From: an uncultured Candidatus Actinomarina sp.
GTDB taxonomy: Bacteria; Actinomycetota; Acidimicrobiia; Actinomarinales; Actinomarinaceae
DNA length: 64,000 nucleotides
NCBI GenBank assembly: GCA_902593795.1
Contig: CACJJR010000001.1
Coordinates: 131,230 to 195,229, forward strand
Reading direction: 5' to 3'
A model generated the notes under the pieces. That model was not told the origin of the DNA. It saw only the letters and a list, made by a program, of their open reading frames with translations, and did not search any database. Shown one piece after another: positions 9,053 to 23,289 of this stretch. The translations under genes were made by a program, and so were the position numbers. The first letter of the stretch is position 1, and the number at the start of each line of letters is the position of its first letter.

Positions 9053-10219
9053 ATGGAAAATCAAGAATTTAATCGAACGCTTACTTTGAAAAGTTCTATC
9101 TATCTTGGTTTAAGTTCAATGATTGGTGCTGGATTATTTAATAATATTGCTCCTACTTCAAAAATTAGTTCCTATGGATCACTTATTGGTCTGTTAATAG
9201 CTTCTTCTTTGGCTTTTGCAAATGCCTCATCATCTGCTCAACTGTCCTCATTATTTCCAAGAACAGGTGGAACATATTTGTACGCAAAAGAGGTTTTAGG
9301 TAGACCTTATCACATTATCGCTGGTGCGGTTTTTATAATAGGTAAAACAATCAGCTGTATAGCAATAGCTTTAACAGTTGGGAACTATCTTTCGCCAGTG
9401 TATGGACGAGAACTTGGTGTAGTTTTATGTTTACTAATTTTTTTGCTAAGTTTCTCTGGGATAAACAAAACAGCGGAGATAGCAAAGTGGTTTGTTTGGA
9501 TTTTGTTTGGATTACTTATGTTTTACAGTTTTTCTATTATCTCAACATCAGGTGTTAATTATGCTATTCCAGTCTTTAACGATATCTCTTTCGACAGTAT
9601 TTTACTCTCTGCAAGTATTTGGTTTTTTGCTTTCACTGGATATTCAAGACTAGCTACGTTTGGTGAAGAAATTAAAAATCCTAAAGAAATAATTCCTACG
9701 GCAATTTTTACTGGACTTGGAATTACTGTTTTTTTATATCTAATTATTACTTGGTTAACCCTTTCTATTGTAAGTCCAGAAATTATTATGAATTCAAGCA
9801 CTCCGTTGCTCGTTGCAATGGATGTAAGTAGATTTTCAGAATTTACATTTCTGGTCATTTTTGCTTCTTCTATTGCTATGGTTTCTGTATTCCTAGCTCT
9901 AATGCCCGGCATAAGCAGAATATATGTTGCACTTTCTAGAGATAAAATACTCCCTCAGGGTTTCTCCAAAATTCACAAAAAATTTAACTCTGCTTACTTC
10001 TCAGAAGCTTTTGTTCTTATCTCAGTGATAATTGGAATTTACAGCTTTGATGTGGTGGGATCAATAAAGTTAAGCTCTTTTTTTATTTTGATATATTACA
10101 CAATTACAAATCTCTGTGTTATCAAATTAGATAAAGAAAACAGGCTTTACTCAGTGGGCATAGCTTATTATGGCTTTACGCTTTGTCTTGTTTTAGCAGT
10201 AACACTAGTAATTTTTTGA
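9053..10219 (+). CDS. APC-superfamily amino acid/polyamine permease
   Basis: 388 aa. It has an N-terminal LSSMIGAGLF block and about 11-12 hydrophobic segments typical of APC permeases. Confidence 0.65.
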   Translation: MENQEFNRTLTLKSSIYLGLSSMIGAGLFNNIAPTSKISSYGSLIGLLIASSLAFANASSSAQLSSLFPRTGGTYLYAKEVLGRPYHIIAGAVFIIGKTISCIAIALTVGNYLSPVYGRELGVVLCLLIFLLSFSGINKTAEIAKWFVWILFGLLMFYSFSIISTSGVNYAIPVFNDISFDSILLSASIWFFAFTGYSRLATFGEEIKNPKEIIPTAIFTGLGITVFLYLIITWLTLSIVSPEIIMNSSTPLLVAMDVSRFSEFTFLVIFASSIAMVSVFLALMPGISRIYVALSRDKILPQGFSKIHKKFNSAYFSEAFVLISVIIGIYSFDVVGSIKLSSFFILIYYTITNLCVIKLDKENRLYSVGIAYYGFTLCLVLAVTLVIF

Positions 10220-11973: not shown

Positions 11974-12435
11974 TTGGTGGTTAAAAAAACTTTAATTCTT
12001 CTAATACTTCTAGTTTCTTGTTCTGGAAGCCAAACAGTTGTTGATGAACCTCCAAAAAGTCTTGATTCAGAAGAAGTTCTTAATTTAATATTTGATAGTT
12101 ATAAAAATTTTACAAGCAACCCGAAAAAAGCTGTTGATACAATCTGGGGATTTGCTCATGAAGATAATAAAGAGATTACGGGACCGAAAGAACGCTTTTA
12201 TCAAATGTTAATATCGGAGCCATACGACTCGATAATCGATTTAAAAGAATACTCTTATGAAGTTACATATGAAAATGAAACTAATATCCACTACGAAGTT
12301 AAAGTACTTGCAAAAACAAATAACTATTTTGTTATTACTTGGGTTTTTGAGAAAACAGAATGTCCTGATTCTGAAGAGCAGTGTTGGCTTACCATCGCTG
12401 TAACCGCTCCTGCATATTTTGAATCTGGTATTTAA
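11974..12435 (+). CDS. lipoprotein, function unknown
   Basis: 153 aa. It has the signal peptide KKTLILLILLVSC (lipobox LVSC). The start may be TTG at 11974 or GTG at 11977. Confidence 0.6.
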   Translation: MVVKKTLILLILLVSCSGSQTVVDEPPKSLDSEEVLNLIFDSYKNFTSNPKKAVDTIWGFAHEDNKEITGPKERFYQMLISEPYDSIIDLKEYSYEVTYENETNIHYEVKVLAKTNNYFVITWVFEKTECPDSEEQCWLTIAVTAPAYFESGI

Positions 12436-13065
12436 TTACTCATCAAGGCTATCAAGAGGATTTTCAGGCTGGCAAATTTCAAAAGCTTCCTGTACTTCCT
12501 CAGAGCTAAAATCAATATCAGCATCTCTGAAAGCAAAGAAGCCAAATTCTCCAGGTTTTGGATCCGGAAAATCTATACCTTGATCTCGCATGCATTGAGA
12601 AAACTCTAGAGAAGCATCTACCAAAGCTGCCTCGACTTCAGGATCTAGGTCAAACTGCTCTGGAAGTGCGTTTCTTAAAATATCTTCACAACTTTCAAAA
12701 GCATTCTCAAATTCTTCTTCATTTTCTATTTCTAGATTATCAAACTCAGGATTGCCATCAATATCAAATGTTGGGTCTGGAAAGTTAATTCCCTCTTCTC
12801 TCATACATTGTGCAAAATTAAGAACACCTTCTTCAAAAGTAGTTTCCTCATCAACGATGGTTGTTTGTGTTGTGGAGTCAATAGTCGCTACACCCTGTGA
12901 TTCTTCCCCTCCAATTGTGCATGCAGTAAAAACCGCAACGAAAAAAAGTAGTTTTACTTTCTTACTGCTTCTGCTGGTTGAATTTTTGATGCTTTTATAG
13001 CTGGATAAACACCAGAAATAGCTCCGATTAATAAAGCTAAAAGCACTGCTCCAAATATTTGCCAT
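12436..13065 (-). CDS. acidic Cys-pair-repeat lipoprotein, paralog 1 of 4 (start codon uncertain)
   Basis: It has the lipobox VFTAC, then two repeats: FAQCMREEGINFPDP...FESC and FSQCMRDQGIDFPDP...FEIC. The only in-frame ATG (13065) lies 112 nt inside the upstream permease gene. Confidence 0.6.
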   Translation of the reverse strand: MANIWSSAFSFINRSYFWCLSSYKSIKNSTSRSSKKVKLLFFVAVFTACTIGGEESQGVATIDSTTQTTIVDEETTFEEGVLNFAQCMREEGINFPDPTFDIDGNPEFDNLEIENEEEFENAFESCEDILRNALPEQFDLDPEVEAALVDASLEFSQCMRDQGIDFPDPKPGEFGFFAFRDADIDFSSEEVQEAFEICQPENPLDSLDE

Positions 13066-14138
13066 ACTGGTATTGAGAATACAATATTTGTGTAATTAGT
13101 ATAACCCAGAGTTATAGCCGCTCCGAGAAGCACCCCTACAAGACCTCCAATGCCTGACAAAACAATACTTTCTAATAAAAACTGGTAGCGGATTTCTCTT
13201 CTAGTTGCACCAATAGATCTTCTAACTCCAATTTCCATTCTTCGTTCAAGAACTGACATAACCATAACATTAGCAATAGCTACTCCTCCAACGAGTAGAG
13301 CAACTGAACCTAAGCCTAAAAGTAAATTTGTGAAAGCCTCTTCTGCTGCTTGTTGTGCTTCTAATGCATCTGAAGGACGTGTCACTTCAACTTGGTCTGG
13401 GTTTTCAGGATTCATAGACGGAGCAAGAACCTCTACAACATCTTCTATGAATGTTGGATTTGCCCTTAAATAAATAGTTGTTGGTTCCTCATCAATATCA
13501 AAAAGTGTTTTTGCTACGCCGTATCCAATAAACACAGACCTATCTAGGTCTGGATGGATCTTTAATTCTTCTAATATTCCAACAACACCAAACCATTCGT
13601 TTTCAATCATGATTCTTGTTGGTGTAGATAGATTGTTAATTCCTAATCTTTGAGCCGTTACACTGCCCAAAACTGTTACTGGAACATCAGATAATCCATC
13701 TTGTATAAAACGACCATCAGTAAGATTTCCACCTATTACATCCAAAAGTTCAGAACTTGTGACAATAGTTGAAATACCTCCACCTTCAAATTCTGAAATA
13801 AAGTTACTTCGCCTTACCAATAGGTCTGTTTGGGTTGTTGATGTAACTTCTTGAACAGGACCTATTCTTTCTACCATGCCTAAAACACCTGTAGGAAGTT
13901 TTTCTTGTGTTCCAAAAAAACCTGCCTGTGGTGAAGCTTTGACTAAATTAGTACCTAACGACTCTAAGGTGGAAAGAAGGTCAGCCCTACCTGAAGCAGA
14001 GATTCCGGATACTGCAACTATTGCTGCGATACCGATGCCTATACCTATCGATGTAAGAGTTGCCCGTCCTTTTCTTGCTCGTACTCCATATAAAGCAACA
14101 AAAAACAAGTCTCTGATCTTAAGCCTTTTTTTACTCAT
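12954..14138 (-). CDS. ABC transporter permease, FtsX/MacB type (4 TM plus a large extracytoplasmic domain)
   Basis: 394 aa. An N-terminal TM is followed by a ~230-aa soluble domain, then three C-terminal TMs with the FtsX-like block ERRMEIGVRRSIGATRREI. Confidence 0.8.
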   Translation of the reverse strand: MSKKRLKIRDLFFVALYGVRARKGRATLTSIGIGIGIAAIVAVSGISASGRADLLSTLESLGTNLVKASPQAGFFGTQEKLPTGVLGMVERIGPVQEVTSTTQTDLLVRRSNFISEFEGGGISTIVTSSELLDVIGGNLTDGRFIQDGLSDVPVTVLGSVTAQRLGINNLSTPTRIMIENEWFGVVGILEELKIHPDLDRSVFIGYGVAKTLFDIDEEPTTIYLRANPTFIEDVVEVLAPSMNPENPDQVEVTRPSDALEAQQAAEEAFTNLLLGLGSVALLVGGVAIANVMVMSVLERRMEIGVRRSIGATRREIRYQFLLESIVLSGIGGLVGVLLGAAITLGYTNYTNIVFSIPVWQIFGAVLLALLIGAISGVYPAIKASKIQPAEAVRK

Positions 14139-14818
14139 TGGCTTACTATTTTTCCATCAACTAATTCAATAACTTTTTTGAACATGCTTGCATGTTCTTG
14201 ATTGTGGGTAATCATTATTACAGTTTTTCCCTGATTATTTAGATCTTTTAATATATTCAAAATATTTAGGCCGGACTCCATATCTAAATTACCTGTTGGC
14301 TCATCAGCTAATACAAATGCAGGATCTTGAACAAGGGCCCGAGCAATTGCAACTCTTTGCTGTTGACCACCAGACAATTCTGTAGGCAGATGTGTCAACC
14401 TGTCTCCAAGGCCTACTTGCTCTAAAACTTCTTTTGCTTTTTCTAATCTGTTTTTTCTAGAAATTCCTTGATATAAAAGGCCTTCGGCAACATTTTCCTG
14501 TGCGGTTAAGCCAGGTAAAAGAAAGAAGCTTTGAAATATAAATCCAATTTTCTCACCTCTGAATTTTGAAAGCTCGTTGTCTGAGAGTTTTGATATGTCA
14601 TTACCTTCAATTTCTATAGAACCGTCGGTTATGCTGTCTAGTAGCCCGATCATATTTAAGAAAGTTGATTTTCCACTACCTGATTGACCGACTATTGAAA
14701 CAAAATCTCCTTCTTTAATTTCTAGTGAAACACCGTCTAATGCTCTTACAGGTGGTGGGCCTTCATATACTTTTGATATGTTGTTTATAGAGATTACAGT
14801 TTTTGTACTGGTTTTCAT
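14135..14818 (-). CDS. ABC transporter ATP-binding protein (MacB/LolD-like)
   Basis: 227 aa. It has Walker A GQSGSGKST, the signature LSGGQQQRVAIARAL, and Walker B FVLADEPTGNLD. Confidence 0.9.
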   Translation of the reverse strand: MKTSTKTVISINNISKVYEGPPPVRALDGVSLEIKEGDFVSIVGQSGSGKSTFLNMIGLLDSITDGSIEIEGNDISKLSDNELSKFRGEKIGFIFQSFFLLPGLTAQENVAEGLLYQGISRKNRLEKAKEVLEQVGLGDRLTHLPTELSGGQQQRVAIARALVQDPAFVLADEPTGNLDMESGLNILNILKDLNNQGKTVIMITHNQEHASMFKKVIELVDGKIVSQ

Positions 14819-16404
14819 CTTGGTACAACTACTATTTGACCCTCTGAGATATTTCCTTTTACTTCGACAAATCCATCAGTAAAAACCCCTATTTCAACTG
14901 CAACATAGCTAGTGTCTACACCAGATTCACCTTCAAATGTTCCACTGTCGAGCTCTCCACTATAAATTTCTAAAGCATAGCCACCCTCTGCTAGGGCAAG
15001 TAAAGCGTTTACTGGAACATATAGTACGTTTTCAGAAATCTCTGTTGTGACAAATACTTTTACGGGTGCTTGATCGTAGGCCTCAATCTCTTCTGGATTA
15101 AGGACTTCTAAGGTTACTTCTATAAACTCTCCTGCTTGAGTTTGTGTTACAACCTGATCTATAAAAGTAATAACCGTTGGTACTCTCTCGTCTGTTGGGA
15201 GTTCTATCTCAACACTATCGCCAAGAGAAACTGTTTCTTGATCTGTAGCATCCACTTGAAAGACAACTTCAATTCCAATAGAGGAAATGTTATAAAGAGG
15301 TGAATTTAACACAACAGCTGAACCTACGTCACTAATATAAGAACCTACAATTATTGGTGTTTTTGATGCATAAGCATTTGTAGGGCTAAAAGTTTCTGAT
15401 TTTGAAGCAAGCTCAAGTTCTTCAAGCTCTTCTTTTGCTTTTGCTAATTCGGCAGCTTGATCAACGCCTTCATTATAATTTTTGACTATATCATCATATG
15501 CTTTTTGTGCTGTCTCAATAGCTAAGGCTTCTGTTGCATCAATTCCCGACTCTTTTCCTTTTTCTAAATTTTGAATTCTTTTTTGTTCTTCTATTTTTTG
15601 TTCATAATCTTTAATTTCAAGTTCTACGACACCCGTCCCTTTCATTTTTTCAGCAGTAATAGGGTTCGTTGGGTCTTTTAATATTGCAATTTGAATTTCA
15701 TAATCTTCAATAAGCTCTTTTGCTTGTTGCCAAGCTGCATTTTCTTCAATAGCAGTTTCTTTGGCATCATCTAACTTCTTTTTCTTGTCATTAACTTGAG
15801 CTAGTGATGTTCCTCCATCAGCAATAGTGTCTTCAATATTTTCGACTTCCGTCTTTTTTAAATTAATAGCTACCTGTTCTGCTGGTGTAATTTCAGATTT
15901 TGTATCAATCTTGTAGTCAACATAAAGAGCATTGAGCATATTTGAAGTAGTTTCATCAAAAGTTTCATCGGGTATGAAGTCTTCTGCAGCATAACCCAAG
16001 AATACAAGAGCTTTTTCAAGTTGTAGCACATCAGGACCAGTGTCTGAGTTCAGATCTAAAGTTCTATAAAATGGTGTTGCTCCCTCAACTAAAATTACAG
16101 GTTTATTATCAACAGCAAAAAGTATTTCTCCAAAATTAATAATTGTTCCTTCTTTAGGGACTAATGTAACAACTCCTGACATTGGTGAGTTAAGAACCTT
16201 GCTGTCCGTCTGTCTTAATGTTCCGTTGTACTCTTCTTTTTTTGCTAAATCACCTTTTTGTATTGCAACAGTAGTTAGTTCTAAGGTTTTATTACTAGAA
16301 GATGTTTCTGCATTTTGGGTACCAAAGTAATAACCCCCATAAGCCAGGGCTGCTATAAAAATTAGCGTGTACAAGTTTTTTAATTTAAGTAAGTTTTTCA
16401 TCAT
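14815..16404 (-). CDS. membrane-anchored periplasmic-adaptor-like protein (HlyD/MacA-like) with a putative peptidoglycan-binding domain
   Basis: 529 aa. It has an N-terminal TM, the block GPDVLQLEKALVFLGY (PG_binding_1-like), a long charged coiled-coil region, and a beta-rich C-terminus. Confidence 0.6.
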   Translation of the reverse strand: MMKNLLKLKNLYTLIFIAALAYGGYYFGTQNAETSSSNKTLELTTVAIQKGDLAKKEEYNGTLRQTDSKVLNSPMSGVVTLVPKEGTIINFGEILFAVDNKPVILVEGATPFYRTLDLNSDTGPDVLQLEKALVFLGYAAEDFIPDETFDETTSNMLNALYVDYKIDTKSEITPAEQVAINLKKTEVENIEDTIADGGTSLAQVNDKKKKLDDAKETAIEENAAWQQAKELIEDYEIQIAILKDPTNPITAEKMKGTGVVELEIKDYEQKIEEQKRIQNLEKGKESGIDATEALAIETAQKAYDDIVKNYNEGVDQAAELAKAKEELEELELASKSETFSPTNAYASKTPIIVGSYISDVGSAVVLNSPLYNISSIGIEVVFQVDATDQETVSLGDSVEIELPTDERVPTVITFIDQVVTQTQAGEFIEVTLEVLNPEEIEAYDQAPVKVFVTTEISENVLYVPVNALLALAEGGYALEIYSGELDSGTFEGESGVDTSYVAVEIGVFTDGFVEVKGNISEGQIVVVPR

Positions 16405-16467
16405 TATTCCAATCAGATTAGTTTATTAAACCTGTAAGTTTTCTGAGAAATTATTTTATTAAATTTC

Positions 16468-17067
16468 TTAATCGTCCCATTCCTCGTCTTTTAATTCTTC
16501 TGGCATTGTTTCCTCGCAGGCCTGCCATGTCTGAACGATTGGATCATCTTCGCTAAAATCCCATTCTTCAGTTGTGTATGCATCAAGGTTCACATTTCTA
16601 TTAAAGTAATCGGGATCAGGAACCCTTGGATATCCATTCTCTCTAAAACACTTTGCAATAAAAAGAGAAGAGTCTAATTCTTTTGCCACTTGTGCAGGGT
16701 CTTCAAATTGATTTTCATCAGCAACACCCCATAAATTATATTTCAATGCACATTCCTCGATAATATCCCAAAGTTCTTCCGCTTCCTGTTCTGTTATTGT
16801 TTCAAAATAAGAAGCAATGGTTGTATAAAGGTCTAAGAAGTTTTTAGGTTCTTTAAATTTATAACCAGATTCATTTACACATTGAACAAGGACTAGTGGG
16901 GCATCTTCATCTGAGATTTCTTCTCTTTCATCTGACAACTCAACACCCAATGAAATTGCTTCTTTTCCTTTGTCAGTGTCAGCAACTGAAACAACAGATT
17001 TTTCTTCTTGTTGGAATAAAGAACAAGCTGTTAATAATACGAGTATTATTGAGGTTTTTTTATACAT
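16468..17067 (-). CDS. acidic Cys-pair-repeat lipoprotein, paralog 2 of 4
   Basis: 199 aa. It has the lipobox LLTAC. The repeats are LVQCVNESGYKFKEP...IEEC and IAKCFRENGYPRVPDP...WQAC. Confidence 0.7.
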   Translation of the reverse strand: MYKKTSIILVLLTACSLFQQEEKSVVSVADTDKGKEAISLGVELSDEREEISDEDAPLVLVQCVNESGYKFKEPKNFLDLYTTIASYFETITEQEAEELWDIIEECALKYNLWGVADENQFEDPAQVAKELDSSLFIAKCFRENGYPRVPDPDYFNRNVNLDAYTTEEWDFSEDDPIVQTWQACEETMPEELKDEEWDD

Positions 17068-17092
17068 ATAAAATTATAAATAATATGTAGTT

Positions 17093-17683
17093 TTATCCTC
17101 CACCTTGCTGTGGTGGTTCAAGTCCGAGATCGTCAAAGCATTCTCCAGCAGCTTCTCTAACTTGGTCTTCTAAATATTGCCCAGACTGCACTAATCCAAC
17201 AAGTATTGGTCTAAGGGGTCTGTCTGCACTAGGGTCTTCAACCTCTATGCCTTTTCCTCTTAAGCATTGAGCAAATTCAAGCTCTGTATCAAGCCTTTCT
17301 GCAACATCTTCTGGATTCTCAAAGTCTGCGTTGTCTCCCAAAGGAATATTGTTTTCTTCTGCACACATTTGTATAGTCTGAAAAAGCTCTGTTCTTCCTC
17401 TTTCATCAGCTGCAATAAAGATCGGAGTTAAAACACTTCTTAAACCTTCATCGTTCTTTGGATCTTGAACGTCGTATCCGTTATCCCTTAAGCACCTAGC
17501 TAACAAAAGCTCAGCATCTTCAGGTGATAAAGTTTCTTCGACAACATCTTCTACGATAGTTGTTACCGTTGCGACAGTCGATAAGTCTTCTGTGGAAACT
17601 ACACCTTGTGAGTCATCTGACGAGGAGCACGCAGAGATAAGAACAAATATAAGTAATAAGAAAATGTTTAAGTATTTTTTCAT
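17093..17683 (-). CDS. acidic Cys-pair-repeat lipoprotein, paralog 3 of 4
   Basis: 196 aa. It has the lipobox LISAC. The repeats are LARCLRDNGYDVQDP...IQMC and FAQCLRGKGIEVEDP...AGEC. Confidence 0.7.
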   Translation of the reverse strand: MKKYLNIFLLLIFVLISACSSSDDSQGVVSTEDLSTVATVTTIVEDVVEETLSPEDAELLLARCLRDNGYDVQDPKNDEGLRSVLTPIFIAADERGRTELFQTIQMCAEENNIPLGDNADFENPEDVAERLDTELEFAQCLRGKGIEVEDPSADRPLRPILVGLVQSGQYLEDQVREAAGECFDDLGLEPPQQGGG

Positions 17684-17687
17684 AATT

Positions 17688-18128
17688 TTAATTGTTTTCC
17701 CTTATTGAAATTAAAAAGAAAATTAAAGTCACTAAACCTATCAAGGGAGAGAGCGCTCCCGGAGGATCTGCACTAATGATTAAAGACTTATAAAAACCAA
17801 TTCCTGCTCTGAATATGTTTTCTAAAGCAATAATTAACAACATAAGCGGAATAAGCTCTCTAATTTTTAAAACAACCAGAAGCAAAATGCAAGTTAAAAC
17901 TAGCTGTGAAAAACCCCACTGTGCAAATATTGAAACAATGTTGTTTGCAGCTTCTGGTGAATAACTACTTAGTGGAATGCCCGCAATAGATTCAGCTCCA
18001 CCATCTTCAGCAAATATGTGTTCAAGGCTTCTAAATAAGTTGAACCCAACTAGTAACCAACAAAAGTAGTAGATAAATTTGTTACTTGGAATTTTATTTT
18101 CGATTGTTTCGGGTATTAATTTTTTCAT
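17688..18128 (-). CDS. small 4-TM membrane protein, function unknown
   Basis: 146 aa with four hydrophobic segments. It sits between lipoprotein paralogs 3 and 4. Confidence 0.55.
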   Translation of the reverse strand: MKKLIPETIENKIPSNKFIYYFCWLLVGFNLFRSLEHIFAEDGGAESIAGIPLSSYSPEAANNIVSIFAQWGFSQLVLTCILLLVVLKIRELIPLMLLIIALENIFRAGIGFYKSLIISADPPGALSPLIGLVTLIFFLISIRENN

Positions 18129-18183
18129 AAAGTGTTTCTATGTTTTTAGTTTCTTTATTTTTTTTATTATACAAATCTAATAC

Positions 18184-18675
18184 TTATTTTTGCCAACCAC
18201 ATTCTTGTAACAGTGGTGTTATATCATCTTCTGATTTTTTTAATCCACTTAAGTCAAGTTTAGGCTCTTGTTGGCTAGGGTCTTCAATCTCTATGCCTTT
18301 TCCTCTTAGACATTTGGCTAACTCAAGATTTTCGTCGTATAATTTAGCAAGCTCCTCTGGATTTGAAGCAGATGAATCTGTCCAAAGATTGTATTTATTA
18401 ATACAATAATTAACATCGTCCCCCAACTGTAACTCTTCCTCCTTGCTATTGCTTAGTTGACTAATTGTTGTTTTTAAATCTTGTATGTCAAACGGTGTTG
18501 CTATGTTGTATCCCTTTTCTTCATTCAAACACTGAGATAAAACAATTGGATAATCCTCTTCTTCTATTATTGAGGTTGTTGTGGTGTTTCCCGAAAGAGA
18601 AGCTACTCCTTCATTGCTAGGGGCTGAACATAAACTTAAAAAAAGAATAAAAAGTAATAAATTTGTTTTTTTCAA
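18184..18675 (-). CDS. acidic Cys-pair-repeat lipoprotein, paralog 4 of 4
   Basis: 163 aa. It has the lipobox LSLC. The repeats are LSQCLNEEKGYNIATP...VNYC and LAKCLRGKGIEIEDP...LQEC. Confidence 0.7.
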   Translation of the reverse strand: MKKTNLLLFILFLSLCSAPSNEGVASLSGNTTTTSIIEEEDYPIVLSQCLNEEKGYNIATPFDIQDLKTTISQLSNSKEEELQLGDDVNYCINKYNLWTDSSASNPEELAKLYDENLELAKCLRGKGIEIEDPSQQEPKLDLSGLKKSEDDITPLLQECGWQK

Positions 18676-18677
18676 CT

Positions 18678-19781
18678 TTACTTATTCCTTAGACCAAACA
18701 ATGGCCTTAGTGGTTTGATGTTTTTTATAGCGTGATAAATAGTTAAAGAGAGAAAGCAAATCAAGAACAAGGCAATTGGAAATTTAATTATTGGATGAAT
18801 ATTTATACCTGCAAAAAAATACATTACTGCCATTTGTACAGGTAAGTGAACAATGTAAACAGGATAAACAGCTGTTTTATAATAGGTAAGTTGTGGTGAA
18901 TCATTGTTAAGATAAACAGCTCCTAGGCCCAGAAGTAAGAATATAAAATTAAAAGATTCGAAAGCTATGAGTCTATTGTCTAGTGCATAACCATCTTCGA
19001 AATTATTAAAAAATCTATACATATAAGAAACACTTGCAAAAGCTAGATGTATTCGCCAATTTCGCTTATTTGATTCCCAGAAAGCCTCGCCCTGTGAAGT
19101 TAAGACTATGCCGATCAAGAACCATAAAAAACCAAGTAGTAGCCCGTGCTCGGTGTTTGCATATTCGTTATAAAAATTTCCATAGTACGAATCGGGATTA
19201 AATCTAAGAAGGTTTAGAACGTGACCTTCAAGAATAATCGGTATTAAAAATATAAATATACCTCCGGGTTGTTGAAGCAAAGAAGAAATAATGCCTTCTT
19301 TTTGATTTTTATTAGAAATAAAATTTAAAACAGGAACTAACAGTATGCAGTAAATCAAGATATTTAAGAGAAACCATAAATGAACACCATTAAATTCAAA
19401 AGCAGCAAATATTAACCATAATGAGTCGGGTGACCAACCCTCATAATATGTAACTGCAATTACGAGAGAAGCTGTAGCAAATGTGATGGTTCCAAACAGC
19501 CAGGGGACTACAAGAATCTTAACTCTTTCTTTTAATATTTCTGGGCGTGTTCTTTTTTGAAACGATAACCTTAGAGCAATTCCAGCAATCAAAAAAACTA
19601 ACGGTATTCTCCATGTGTTTAGTAAGTTCAGTAATGGCCAAATTCCATCAGCAATTCTTTTATTTTGAACAAAAAGAATATATGGAGAGAGTGAGGTAAA
19701 TGAAATTCCAAGATGATAAAAAATGAGCAGAAACATTGCTATGGACCTCAAAGCGTCAATATCGTATCTTCTCTCGTTCAT
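18678..19781 (-). CDS. acyltransferase family 3 (membrane-bound O-acyltransferase-like)
   Basis: 367 aa. The N-terminus RYDIDALRSIAMFLLIFYHLGISF is characteristic of acyltransferase_3 proteins. It is about 10 TM. Confidence 0.65.
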   Translation of the reverse strand: MNERRYDIDALRSIAMFLLIFYHLGISFTSLSPYILFVQNKRIADGIWPLLNLLNTWRIPLVFLIAGIALRLSFQKRTRPEILKERVKILVVPWLFGTITFATASLVIAVTYYEGWSPDSLWLIFAAFEFNGVHLWFLLNILIYCILLVPVLNFISNKNQKEGIISSLLQQPGGIFIFLIPIILEGHVLNLLRFNPDSYYGNFYNEYANTEHGLLLGFLWFLIGIVLTSQGEAFWESNKRNWRIHLAFASVSYMYRFFNNFEDGYALDNRLIAFESFNFIFLLLGLGAVYLNNDSPQLTYYKTAVYPVYIVHLPVQMAVMYFFAGINIHPIIKFPIALFLICFLSLTIYHAIKNIKPLRPLFGLRNK

Positions 19782-19809
19782 ATGAACAATATTAATGCCT
19801 GGGTTTGAA

Positions 19810-20244
19810 TTAATTAAATTGTAGTTTCTCTTTAAGGTCTTCAGTTATTGGTGTGGCTTTCATGGTTGTTTGATCTGTATAAACATGAACCGCTTCACAA
19901 GAACTTACTAGTTCCCCTGTTTCTTTTAAAAACATTCCCATAATCCAGGTCATACTTGAGTTGCCTATTTCCTTAACTCTGACCCCAATCTCTATATCCT
20001 GATCAAAGTAGAGAGGTTTGTTGTACTGAACTAATACCTGTACAGTATGAAAATCTTTTTTCGTCTCTTCGATGTCTTTCAAGTAATCATAATTTATATG
20101 CTTAAAATAAGCAGTAATTGCCTGATCAAAAAATGCTACGTGATTAGCATTGTGCATTACTCCTTGTGGATCAAGTTCATAATATCTAACAGTTGTTTCC
20201 CAAAAAGCTTGAAATTCTTCTCTAGATAGGTTTATTTTTGACAT
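19810..20244 (-). CDS. acyl-CoA thioesterase, hotdog fold (YbgC/4HBT-like)
   Basis: 144 aa. The block VRYYELDPQGVMHNANHVAFFDQA matches the catalytic-Asp N-terminal pattern of 4HBT thioesterases. Confidence 0.65.
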   Translation of the reverse strand: MSKINLSREEFQAFWETTVRYYELDPQGVMHNANHVAFFDQAITAYFKHINYDYLKDIEETKKDFHTVQVLVQYNKPLYFDQDIEIGVRVKEIGNSSMTWIMGMFLKETGELVSSCEAVHVYTDQTTMKATPITEDLKEKLQFN

Positions 20245-22368: not shown

Positions 22369-23289
22369 TTAAACTTTTTGTTTAGTGTTTCTTCTAGTTA
22401 AAACATAAATCATTATTACTAAAAACAATAATGATATTAATAGTAACTGGTCAGAATACACGTTGGTTTGTGCACTTTCTTCGAAAGTAGTAGACAACTC
22501 TTCGACAAGCTGGACAGTAGTTGTTCCCCAGTTGCTTGCAAGAGTGTCATCAAGAAAATATACATTAGAGTTTTCTACTGCTGATATATTCCCCCAACCT
22601 TCTCTTATTGAAAGATCTTTATTTAAATAATCAGAGTGTCCTACAACAATATAGTCTGGATTAGACCCTATAACCATTTCCTCACTCAGAGCTGGATACC
22701 CACTTCCAAAAGGGTCTTCTTCTGAATTAGCAATGTTTACAATACCAAGTTCATTGTAAATTTCTCCAATTAGTGAATCAGAATTTACACTATAAATTCC
22801 ATAGGAATATCCAATTTCATGATAGACAGAGACATTTTCGTAATTAGCATCATCTAATATCCGGTTAATTTCTAGTTTCATGTCTCTAACCTTCGAAGAG
22901 GCCGCACCTTTTTTATTTACAATCTCTCCAATTGTTGAAATTTGAGAATAAACATCTTCAAAATTTTTCGCTGGTGGAAGTAAGACATAGTTGATTTCCT
23001 GGCTTTCAAGCCCGTCGACTATTCCATTAAAATCAAAGGCAACGATAACCATATCTGGATTTAATGGCGCAAGCTCTTCCGCTGTTACTGTGTATGCGTC
23101 TATTCTTTCCACTGGAAAATCAACCTCAGAAAAAGCATCCACTGCAATTAGTGTGTCTTGTGCTTCTAATGACTGAATAATTTCAGTGTGTGTTGTTGAT
23201 AAAGATATAATTTTTATATCTTCGCTTTCTTGTGCTGGACTCGAACACATCGATACCAACAAGGCAAGAAAAATTAACTTAGTTTTCAT
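22369..23289 (-). CDS. BtuF/FhuD-type (cluster A-II) periplasmic binding protein, probable cobalamin binder, with an N-terminal lipobox and a C-terminal TM anchor
   Basis: 306 aa. It has the lipobox VSMC and IISLSTTHTEIIQSLEAQDTLIAVD (Peripla_BP_2-like). The C-terminus is LLLISLLFLVIMIYVLTRRNTKQKV. A cobalamin riboswitch lies immediately upstream. Confidence 0.65.
   Translation of the reverse strand: MKTKLIFLALLVSMCSSPAQESEDIKIISLSTTHTEIIQSLEAQDTLIAVDAFSEVDFPVERIDAYTVTAEELAPLNPDMVIVAFDFNGIVDGLESQEINYVLLPPAKNFEDVYSQISTIGEIVNKKGAASSKVRDMKLEINRILDDANYENVSVYHEIGYSYGIYSVNSDSLIGEIYNELGIVNIANSEEDPFGSGYPALSEEMVIGSNPDYIVVGHSDYLNKDLSIREGWGNISAVENSNVYFLDDTLASNWGTTTVQLVEELSTTFEESAQTNVYSDQLLLISLLFLVIMIYVLTRRNTKQKV

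Follow-up and report, generated by a model that had tools for sequence, protein, structure and literature searches.

On its minus strand, a 64-kb stretch of the genome of an uncultured Candidatus Actinomarina sp. (contig CACJJR010000001.1; hereafter the window, with a G+C content of ~35%) carries the genes for an ATP-binding cassette (ABC) exporter interleaved with four genes, P1 to P4, for lipoproteins built from a repeat with a pair of cysteines. This lipoprotein belongs to a conserved four-gene module that also encodes an adaptor, an ATPase and a permease, and it is the new element of the module: a helical protein of two domains, tethered to the membrane, usually acidic and probably braced by disulfides. 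In the reading that we favor, to which we give about an even chance, the lipoprotein is an accessory subunit at the outer face of the membrane that captures, presents or gates the substrate of a wall-anchored, MacAB-like detoxification pump. Its physical interaction with the pump, its role in capture or hand-off and the identity of the substrate are what we infer from the observations that follow.

The linkage of the lipoprotein to the pump was analyzed in one genome per GTDB species, with an alignment of six high-GC family members as the query. The scan returned 80 loci, distributed over many orders of Actinomycetes, the Acidimicrobiia, Thermoleophilia and Nitriliruptoria, and including at least eight from Chloroflexota. 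Six-frame open reading frames (ORFs) of these loci were searched with the window's own proteins and with a profile of the repeat unit. An ORF with two units, followed by an adaptor homolog on the same strand, was present in 80/80 loci, and all four components were detected in 75 of them; the other five showed contig ends, fragmented ORFs or a borderline score. Three further representatives, picked solely for their long contigs and with genes called by others, have the order lipoprotein, PG_binding_1 adaptor, ABC_tran ATPase and MacB_PCD/FtsX permease, with a 4-nt overlap at every junction, and such overlaps point to translational coupling. The same module is found in the RefSeq annotation of Streptomyces clavuligerus pSCL4 (BB341_RS33850-RS29860). 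Tandem copies of the lipoprotein gene, two to five in number, occur in several loci of Chloroflexota and Acidimicrobiia, and in the window the adaptor gene is preceded by P2, P3 and P4, and P1 is found downstream of the permease gene. The initial annotation of this DNA, made from the letters alone, had proposed mapping the co-occurrence with this type of transporter across Actinobacteria; the 80 loci and the three look-ups show a tight linkage there and take it beyond that group. Both a known domain for the repeat and a lack of linkage elsewhere were checked for, and neither was found. In the literature, we found no description of the near-invariant position of the lipoprotein gene before the adaptor gene, nor of a four-component actinobacterial system.

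Mean pairwise identity across 68 of the loci was 0.40 for the lipoprotein, 0.45 for the adaptor, 0.62 for the permease and 0.65 for the ATPase, which by this measure makes the lipoprotein the fastest-evolving component of the module. A mirror-tree search for a partner of the lipoprotein gave correlations of 0.51-0.57 with all pump parts and singled out none of them. In a single record of Nonomuraea gerenzanensis (NZ_LT559118.1 in PLSDB, 11.85 Mb), family matches lie at six separate places, which may mean that large actinomycete genomes have several modules each.

In the window, the module is encoded by eight co-directional minus-strand ORFs, P4 through P1, separated by intergenic gaps of -4 to 63 nt; an ORF check agreed with the initial annotation on their coordinates and strand. 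Together with the genes for an Acyl_transf_3 protein and a 4HBT thioesterase, they make up a minus-strand run at 12436-20244, with the following features:

12436-13065, minus strand: P1 lipoprotein paralog (ORF), at the 3' end of the operon
12676-12849 and 12460-12636, minus strand: the two Cys-pair units of P1
12919-12921, minus strand: lipid Cys codon of the P1 lipobox FTAC, by inspection; start codon uncertain
12954-14138, minus strand: FtsX/MacB permease, 394 amino acids (FtsX, MacB_PCD)
14135-14818, minus strand: ABC ATPase, 227 amino acids (ABC_tran)
14815-16404, minus strand: membrane-fusion adaptor, 529 amino acids (sub-threshold RND_mfp and PG_binding_1; homolog profile)
16468-17067, minus strand: P2 lipoprotein, directly 5' of the adaptor gene (ORF, paralogy)
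16738-16923 and 16504-16692, minus strand: the two units of P2 (unit profile)
17023-17025, minus strand: lipid Cys codon of the P2 lipobox LTAC, by inspection
17093-17683, minus strand: P3 lipoprotein (ORF, paralogy, AlphaFold)
17627-17629, minus strand: lipid Cys codon of the canonical P3 lipobox LISAC, by inspection
17351-17536, minus strand: P3 unit 1, residues 50-111, with Cys64 and Cys107; predicted helices 54-67, 81-91 and 94-110 (AlphaFold)
17126-17308, minus strand: P3 unit 2, residues 126-186, with Cys140 and Cys182; predicted helices 124-143, 157-166 and 172-186 (AlphaFold)
17688-18128, minus strand: protein of 146 amino acids with four transmembrane (TM) segments, from four hydropathy peaks; no family match
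18184-18675, minus strand: P4 lipoprotein-like paralog with a TTG start; orthologs P0126 and P0128
18391-18573 and 18187-18354, minus strand: the two units of P4 (unit profile)
18628-18630, minus strand: Cys codon of the atypical P4 lipobox LSLC, by inspection
18678-19781, minus strand: Acyl_transf_3 gene (Pfam)
19810-20244, minus strand: 4HBT thioesterase gene (Pfam)

P1 to P4 are true paralogs, as the initial annotation had claimed: they match one another in BLASTP with E-values of 5e-8 to 1e-22 at 24-34% identity, and cross-matches between first and second halves were also seen. A hold-out hidden Markov model (HMM) built from the four first units recovered 4/4 second units with E-values of 3e-9 to 2e-5, compared to 0.85 for the top-scoring unrelated ORF in the window, and the reverse hold-out, from second to first units, gave E-values of 8e-12 to 0.018, so that the claim of two repeat copies per protein holds in both directions. 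The unit is ~58 residues long and follows the pattern h-x-x-C-(M/L/F/V)-(R/N)-x-x-G-x-x-x-x-(D/E/T)-P, with the second Cys ~38-45 residues on; in the alignment of all eight units, four columns are invariant, namely C, G (+5), P (+11) and the second C. Each of the four lipoproteins gave two full-length matches to the unit profile, which matched nothing else among all ORFs of the 64-kb window. Asp and Glu make up 18-25% of P1-P4, in keeping with the richness in these residues noted initially. Of the lipoboxes claimed for all four proteins, those of P2 (LTAC) and P3 (ISAC) stood when the pattern [LVI][ASTVI][GAS]C was applied by inspection; P4 has an atypical LSLC with Leu at -1, and P1 has FTAC with an uncertain start.

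There is no ATG, GTG or TTG close to the P1 lipobox, and ATG 13065, at a distance of 112 nt into the permease gene, is the sole start in frame. The P1 ortholog in the related locus L087 begins MKKIIFIFLLTSC, with an ATGA overlapping the permease stop codon. At the position of that ATG, the window has AAG or AGT, according to where a two-residue length difference is placed, and the upstream P1 frame is likewise open in the related representative P0123. P1 may start at ATG 13065 or rely on an unusual translation mechanism.

To size the family, the eight-unit profile was searched against 1.84 billion cluster representatives (50% identity clusters), where 3,297 clusters were matched at E<=1e-3, 801 of them at E<=1e-10. 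Among the best 150 representatives, almost every one has two matched stretches and a length of 170-230 residues. The members are almost all two-unit proteins, mostly acidic lipoproteins of Actinomycetota and Chloroflexota, and most of them resemble high-G+C actinobacterial lipoproteins with the motif FAQCMRDNGVDxPDP. The columns that are invariant family-wide (C, G, P, C, R and D-P) match the units of the window. A regular expression detected a lipobox in 123/150 of the best representatives; exactly five Cys, i.e., one lipid Cys and four others, are present in 100 of these 123, for which the median isoelectric point (pI) of the mature protein is ~4 and the Asp plus Glu content 21%. In P0138, P0153 and P0251, a cytoplasmic extension and an N-terminal TM helix take the place of the lipobox. 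Some relatives are thus TM-anchored, and what is conserved is therefore membrane anchoring rather than lipidation as such.

Between the anchor and the repeat lies a low-complexity tether with low predicted local distance difference test scores (pLDDT), in which a GVASL-type motif is embedded. This motif occurs 8-13 residues past the lipid Cys in 75/121 representatives, compared to 2.9% of shuffled tails, and its counterparts in the window are GVATI in P1 (about 12880-12895), GVVST in P3, GVASL in P4 and SVVSV in P2. Such placement suggests a docking or processing element held at a fixed height above the membrane.

Public sources annotate the family as "hypothetical protein", and searches for a characterised relative came back empty. 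P1-P4 gave no match in Pfam, NCBIfam, PHROGs or PADLOC. No family was assigned when 48 diverse members were scanned singly against Pfam and NCBIfam: the Pfam scan gave weak, sub-threshold matches to CHCH/CX9C/COX17 and PBP_GOBP in 4-9 of the 48 (best E 0.0018-0.018), and the NCBIfam scan weak, sub-threshold matches to various lipoprotein models. The unit profile found nothing credible among PDB sequences, its hit to a respiratory-chain protein of Tetrahymena (E 0.0021) being due to chance, and in a Foldseek comparison of the P3 model with the PDB the best E was 1.1 and all TM-scores were <0.3. A search of the literature found no description of this lipoprotein family. The repeat had been called novel and without a characterised family; the latter was confirmed by all of these searches, and novelty stands in the sense that the repeat is uncharacterised, but with 3,297 clusters at 50% identity it is not rare. 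For annotators, the family provides a new domain definition and a conserved tether motif.

An AlphaFold2 model of P3, built with a 48-sequence alignment, has pLDDT >90 over both domains and 54-66 for the tether. It shows three helices per unit; helix 1 holds the first Cys of the pair, and the other lies in helix 3. Exported proteins of Actinobacteria have a bias toward even numbers of Cys and undergo Dsb-like oxidation (PMC2823432). Based on this finding and on the Cys geometry in the model, we infer two disulfides per protein, each of which would join helix 1 to helix 3. Directly upstream of the module in L087, and in that lineage only, is a gene (9486-9977) for a 163-residue thioredoxin-like lipoprotein with a CPTC motif; this protein may have a link to the oxidation of the Cys pairs.

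The permease has matches to FtsX (PF02687, 3.7e-21) and MacB_PCD (5.8e-15, residues 27-229) in Pfam, and hydropathy peaks for TM segments at 28-46, 279-297, 325-343 and 352-370, with a loop of ~230 residues between TM1 and TM2. The nearest solved structures are MacB 5gko (1e-25, residues 8-392), MacB 5lil (2.9e-23) and Spr0695 5xu1_M (1.2e-23); LolC structures were matched at only 4e-6, in the C-terminal part, and FtsX at 5.7e-4 over a short stretch. Relative to the MacB equivalog model NF007826, the permease scored 86 bits against a cut-off of 966, and the ATPase is a separate gene. We therefore assign the permease, by homology, to the MacB/type VII ABC family without considering it a MacB ortholog. 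The Lol-like identity entertained in the initial annotation fails: the permease reached 40.4 bits with the lolCE model TIGR02212 (cut-off 362.45) and 25-27 bits with the LolC and LolE models (cut-offs 439-473), and an adaptor gene is present. The ATPase matches ABC_tran at 5.4e-35 and, below the equivalog cut-offs, DarD (1.9e-70), the N-terminal half of MacB (4.7e-69) and LolD (5.6e-68), placing its sequence in the MacB/LolD/FtsE/DarD type.

The adaptor of the window has a hydrophobic segment at residues 11-25 and no Pfam hit; its match to RND_mfp is at 2.4e-7 (30 bits, cut-off 94.9), and its match to PG_binding_1 (PF01471) is at 13.7 bits, E 0.075, below the gathering score of 23. This adaptor was aligned with eleven homologs. 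PG_binding_1 was found above the gathering score in 11/12 adaptor homologs (best 5.1e-22) and in the adaptors of L014, L096, L097 and L098, and HlyD_3 in 7/12. Searched against the PDB, the family profile matched MexJ (1.2e-8), MacA (4e-5) and several peptidoglycan-binding domains. Membership in the membrane fusion proteins is thus supported at the family level, the sequence of the window taken by itself being sub-threshold. In the same way, the peptidoglycan-binding adaptor of the initial annotation is clear in the homologs and below threshold in the window copy. The aligned adaptors begin with an N-terminal anchor and half of a lipoyl domain; these are followed by PG_binding_1, in one or two copies, and finally by the barrel and membrane-proximal domains, so that PG_binding_1 occupies the position of the MacA-type helical hairpin (L012, L019, L020, L036, L041, L057). 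Adaptors of Acidimicrobiia are about 500-560 residues long, and most have an internal duplication of the lipoyl-half and peptidoglycan-binding segment. Of the peptidoglycan-binding domains, the adaptor of the window retains the first in degenerate form (about residues 122-157), and a K/E-rich insertion replaces the second copy of its Acidimicrobiia relatives. As for the coiled coil proposed initially, a single-sequence AlphaFold model drew this insertion as long helices between about residues 174 and 331, with a pLDDT of 38. The literature did not yield a description of an adaptor in which peptidoglycan-binding domains replace the hairpin.

A gene for a TolC-type outer-membrane factor was found neither in the operon nor in related loci, among the genes called there. 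The cell of Actinomarina is bounded by a single membrane. The term "tripartite" used initially is a misnomer, because the operon has no outer-membrane factor gene. The 146-residue protein encoded between P4 and P3 has hydropathy peaks at 18-32, 73-87, 92-106 and 128-142, which fits the four TM segments first proposed for it. It matched no Pfam or NCBIfam family at E<=1, Yip1 included, other than a chance NCBIfam match (E 0.29). No homolog was found in the 80 distant loci; one lies upstream of P3 in L086, and only some Actinomarinales variants have it.

Many of these modules lie beside two-component regulators. A histidine kinase and/or an OmpR-type regulator is encoded within 3.5 kb in 65/80 loci, with both present in 38, mostly upstream of the operon and divergent from it; in two of the three independent look-ups the kinase/regulator genes are directly upstream. 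No two-component regulator was found in the 64-kb window. The kinases and regulators come nearest to generic NCBIfam models of the CztS/CopS type and the VanS-O/VanR-O type, below the cut-offs. The adjacent OmpR-type system probably switches the operon on in most genomes, which would make the pump inducible. In S. clavuligerus ATCC 27064, the gene in the lipoprotein position (CRV15_RS11640) rose most, with log2 fold changes of 3.15, 2.51 and 1.55, the first of these upon induction by Bacillus velezensis (PMC12113186); we take this as a lead only, since that gene is a putative member of the family. The lipoprotein is tied to the pump and not to the regulator, because it is always present, also where kinase and regulator are absent (15/80 loci and the window).

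By its sequence relationships, the pump falls into the known MacB/type VII ABC family and resembles the MacAB-like systems of Gram-positive bacteria. Like the module described here, Bacillus YknWXYZ, Streptococcus pneumoniae Spr0693-0694-0695 and Enterococcus AS-48EFGH combine an adaptor, a separate ATPase and a MacB-type permease that has four TM helices and a large extracytoplasmic domain, in a cell with a single membrane. YknX binds peptidoglycan, and YknW and AS-48E, the latter with four TM helices, are extra co-transcribed membrane proteins that set a precedent for additional components in such pumps (PMC5985334). The 4-TM protein of the window is similar to YknW and AS-48E in position and topology only; there is no sequence match. 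Across the 80 loci, the conserved fourth component is the lipoprotein and not a 4-TM protein, and none of the three Gram-positive systems has a lipoprotein of the Cys-pair family. Unlike those pumps, the adaptors here have PG_binding_1 in place of the alpha-hairpin. The module shares with MacAB-TolC a permease nearest to MacB 5gko, an ATPase matching the N-terminal half of MacB (4.7e-69) and an adaptor profile matching MacA (4e-5); it differs in that the operon has no outer-membrane factor gene, the ATPase and permease are separate, and a lipoprotein is added, and the NCBIfam equivalog cut-offs are missed widely (86 vs 966 bits). LolCDE shares the type VII ABC architecture and the involvement of lipoproteins, but it has no membrane-fusion adaptor, whereas an adaptor and TM-anchored variants of the family are found here. 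The CusF-CusB pair of CusCFBA/CusRS follows the same logic, with the gene for a small extracytoplasmic protein before that for the adaptor and a divergent OmpR-type system. This is an analogy of working principle only: CusCFBA is a resistance-nodulation-division (RND) pump, in contrast to the ABC pump here, with no relation in sequence or fold, and CusF is a soluble beta-barrel with Met/His/Trp ligands as opposed to the lipid-anchored and, as predicted, helical domains with Cys pairs. Short helices with disulfides are also found in CHCH/CX9C/COX17 proteins and in insect PBP/GOBP proteins; the Pfam matches to these are far below the gathering scores, and the Cys are spaced ~38-45 residues apart over three helices rather than as in twin CX9C.

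An accessory subunit is the role that we favor for the lipoprotein because it is tied to the adaptor gene and not to the regulator genes, because it is anchored in all variants, because its tether motif is positioned, and because it evolves fast and is duplicated, in which it resembles importer binding proteins and other partners that determine specificity. Each lipoprotein would be exported by Sec and anchored by its lipid, with a flexible tether of ~30-45 residues that carries the GVASL-type motif and leads to a C-terminal part of two domains. In both of these three-helix domains, a disulfide probably holds helix 1 to helix 3. It would present or capture the substrate at the periplasmic domain of the MacB permease, or dock on or gate the adaptor, and ATP-driven mechanotransmission would then expel the substrate via the adaptor across the wall zone. 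Because the lipoproteins are strongly acidic, our best guess for the substrate is cationic or amphipathic membrane-active compounds, and the four diverged copies in Actinomarina may broaden or partition the range of a single pump. Several points weigh against this reading. No family member has a known substrate. The sample of 80 loci is biased, being made up of those that best matched a single query alignment; the acidity estimate is likewise biased by a profile made from acidic sequences, and mature pI is >6 in 9/123 representatives. Between the lipoprotein and the pump parts, the correlation of distance matrices is only moderate, at 0.51-0.57, with the adaptor (0.57) hardly ahead of the ATPase (0.51). 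An orphan clade (P0142, P0279, P0293) has no pump nearby and lies beside a gene for a TM protein of ~170 residues. Finally, the induced gene of S. clavuligerus is only a putative member of the family.

A bolder reading, tentative and in our estimate rather unlikely, is that type VII ABC systems of monoderm Actinomycetota and Chloroflexota form a class of their own, defined by the Cys-pair lipoprotein as an obligate fourth subunit, where it would be a presenting or gating element or, in a radical form, the machine's own mechanical target. Adaptor-bearing pumps of the MacAB-like kind occur commonly in bacteria with a single membrane, and the role of the adaptor there is an acknowledged open question (PMC5985334). 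If the lipoprotein were such an obligate subunit, substrate presentation or gating would explain what an adaptor does in cells that lack an outer membrane. In the radical form, the pump would pull or reposition the tethered lipoprotein via the wall-anchored adaptor, as a monoderm counterpart to Lol- or FtsEX-style mechanotransmission.

The module offers a concrete candidate for a fourth pump component, in two phyla, that is testable in tractable actinomycetes (S. clavuligerus pSCL4). It is also kept in a highly streamlined free-living genome, with no regulator in the window and with the lipoprotein multiplied; such retention and multiplication argue for a basic role in the envelope, not for an occasional resistance accessory.

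Four other explanations were weighed against an accessory subunit. The lipoproteins might be dedicated cargo that the pump extracts, in Sec-exported and disulfide-bonded form, or passes through the adaptor to the wall or surface, which in a cell with one membrane would amount to handling of the Lol or STII/dispersin kind. Heat-stable enterotoxin II (STII) is a small disulfide-bonded substrate of MacAB. Systems of the MacB family handle Sec-exported proteins and lipoproteins (LolCDE; dispersin of ~10 kDa) (PMC5985334), exporters are often adjoined by the genes for their substrates, multiple paralogs could correspond to multiple cargoes, and the 4-nt gene overlaps show co-expression. We nevertheless consider cargo unlikely: relatives with a TM helix and a cytoplasmic extension would be hard to extract or release, the fixed spacing between the anchor and the conserved motif is suggestive of function while tethered, the permease is far nearer to MacB than to LolC (1e-25 vs 4e-6) and fails the lolCE model, and a monoderm has no outer compartment to be reached. 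Lipoprotein partners of two-component systems are established in actinobacteria, where CseA modulates CseBC and LpqB modulates MtrAB. By analogy, the lipoprotein here might modulate the adjacent histidine kinase or report pump load, as in flux sensing of the Bce type. A kinase and/or regulator within 3.5 kb in 65/80 loci, directly upstream in two of the three look-ups, would fit such a signaling accessory, but it is improbable given that the lipoprotein is present in the 15/80 loci with neither gene nearby and in a window with no two-component system, and that its invariant neighbor is the adaptor gene and not the kinase gene.

The strong acidity of the family could also be that of a cation-binding protein, either a metallochaperone that hands metal ions to the adaptor and pump or a cation buffer at the membrane surface. 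In cusRS/cusCFBA, the gene for a small extracytoplasmic protein precedes that for the adaptor, and the two-component system is divergent; the gene order here mirrors this. A kinase close to a heavy-metal sensor subfamily model, below its cut-off (190.6 vs 292.55 bits), and the sub-threshold COX17, CHCH and CX9C matches in 4-9/48 members point the same way. Set against these are the invariant residues themselves (C, G, P, C, R, D-P), which include no conserved set of His, Met or free-Cys ligands; the Met after the first Cys, which is L, F or V in several units; and the mature pI >6 of 9/123 representatives. Export of metal ions is not known to us for any MacB-type pump, and we strongly doubt a metal-handling role. 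Control of wall remodeling, by an FtsEX-like mechanotransmission device made of a peptidoglycan-binding, coiled-coil 'adaptor' and the lipoproteins, seems highly improbable to us. It would account for PG_binding_1 where MacA-type adaptors have the alpha-hairpin and for retention in a streamlined genome with no regulator, and FtsEX itself works via coiled-coil partners (PMC5985334). The permease, however, has a full MacB_PCD and aligns with MacB end to end, compared to 5.7e-4 over a short stretch for FtsX; the C-terminal half of the adaptor matches the efflux adaptors MexJ and MacA, and a hydrolase domain was found in no component.

Within Actinomarinales, the make-up of the locus varies. Identical or near-identical copies of P3 are present in assemblies labelled Candidatus Actinomarina sp., and related loci, three of them on partial contigs, have the following gene orders, given in the direction of transcription:

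Window: thioesterase, acyltransferase, P4, 4-TM protein, P3, P2, adaptor, ATPase, permease, P1
L087: thioredoxin-like CPTC lipoprotein, P3-like, adaptor, ATPase, permease, P1-like
L086 (partial contig): 4-TM protein, P3, adaptor
L090 (partial contig): thioesterase, P3, P4, adaptor
L091 (partial contig): PFK, P4, P3, P2

Related Actinomarinales have one to three copies 5' of the adaptor gene, and the complete module of L087 adds a 3' copy, so that copy number ranges from at least two to four. The four copies reported initially are thus correct for the window and a lineage-specific state, from which relatives differ. P3-like copies (L086, L087, L090, L091) are next to or near the adaptor gene in each pump-linked variant examined, and in our reading of these orders P3 would be the core copy and P1 the conserved 3' copy in L087, the sole related lineage whose contig reaches that end. 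On the same reading, P2, P4, the 4-TM protein and the acyltransferase appear to come and go among lineages, and the thioesterase and PFK would be syntenic backbone genes outside the system.

The acyltransferase_3 and thioesterase genes upstream, to which the initial annotation had drawn attention, are not conserved neighbors. In the 80 distant loci there was no acyltransferase homolog and one distant thioesterase hit, and in related Actinomarinales the thioesterase is absent or parted from the module by unrelated genes. A functional link of either gene to the module was rejected on these grounds. The top NCBIfam model for the Acyl_transf_3 protein is the MdoC/OpgC-type glucan succinyltransferase NF003014 (1.3e-23, below cut-off), and its gene is probably an independent insertion, because it is absent at the equivalent position in the related Actinomarinales loci.

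Links to phage and to defence were also rejected: scans of IMG/VR found no relative, PHROGs had no family for P1-P4, and the closer relatives are chromosomal; PADLOC gave no hit for anti-phage defence. The loci of the orphan clade are at L085 314-3434, L094 384-1477 and L095 3329-4419. Those in L094 and L095 have an ordinary chromosomal context, and on the 3.4-kb contig of L085 the neighbors of the P3-like gene encode an N6/N4 methyltransferase and a phage-type DNA end protector (phrog_429, 2e-25). On the other side of the run in the window, a convergent plus-strand ORF of 153 residues (11974-12435) ends with its final base at 12435, abutting the P1 stop codon at 12436; it has a lipoprotein-like N-terminus (LLVSCSGS), and its sole family match is a weak one to DUF6488 (E 0.0087). 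At the far end, an adenosylcobalamin (AdoCbl, B12) riboswitch (RF01482; 23337-23473, minus strand; 54.6 bits, E 7e-8) lies just upstream of a Peripla_BP_2 gene (22369-23289), the first gene of the same packed minus-strand run.

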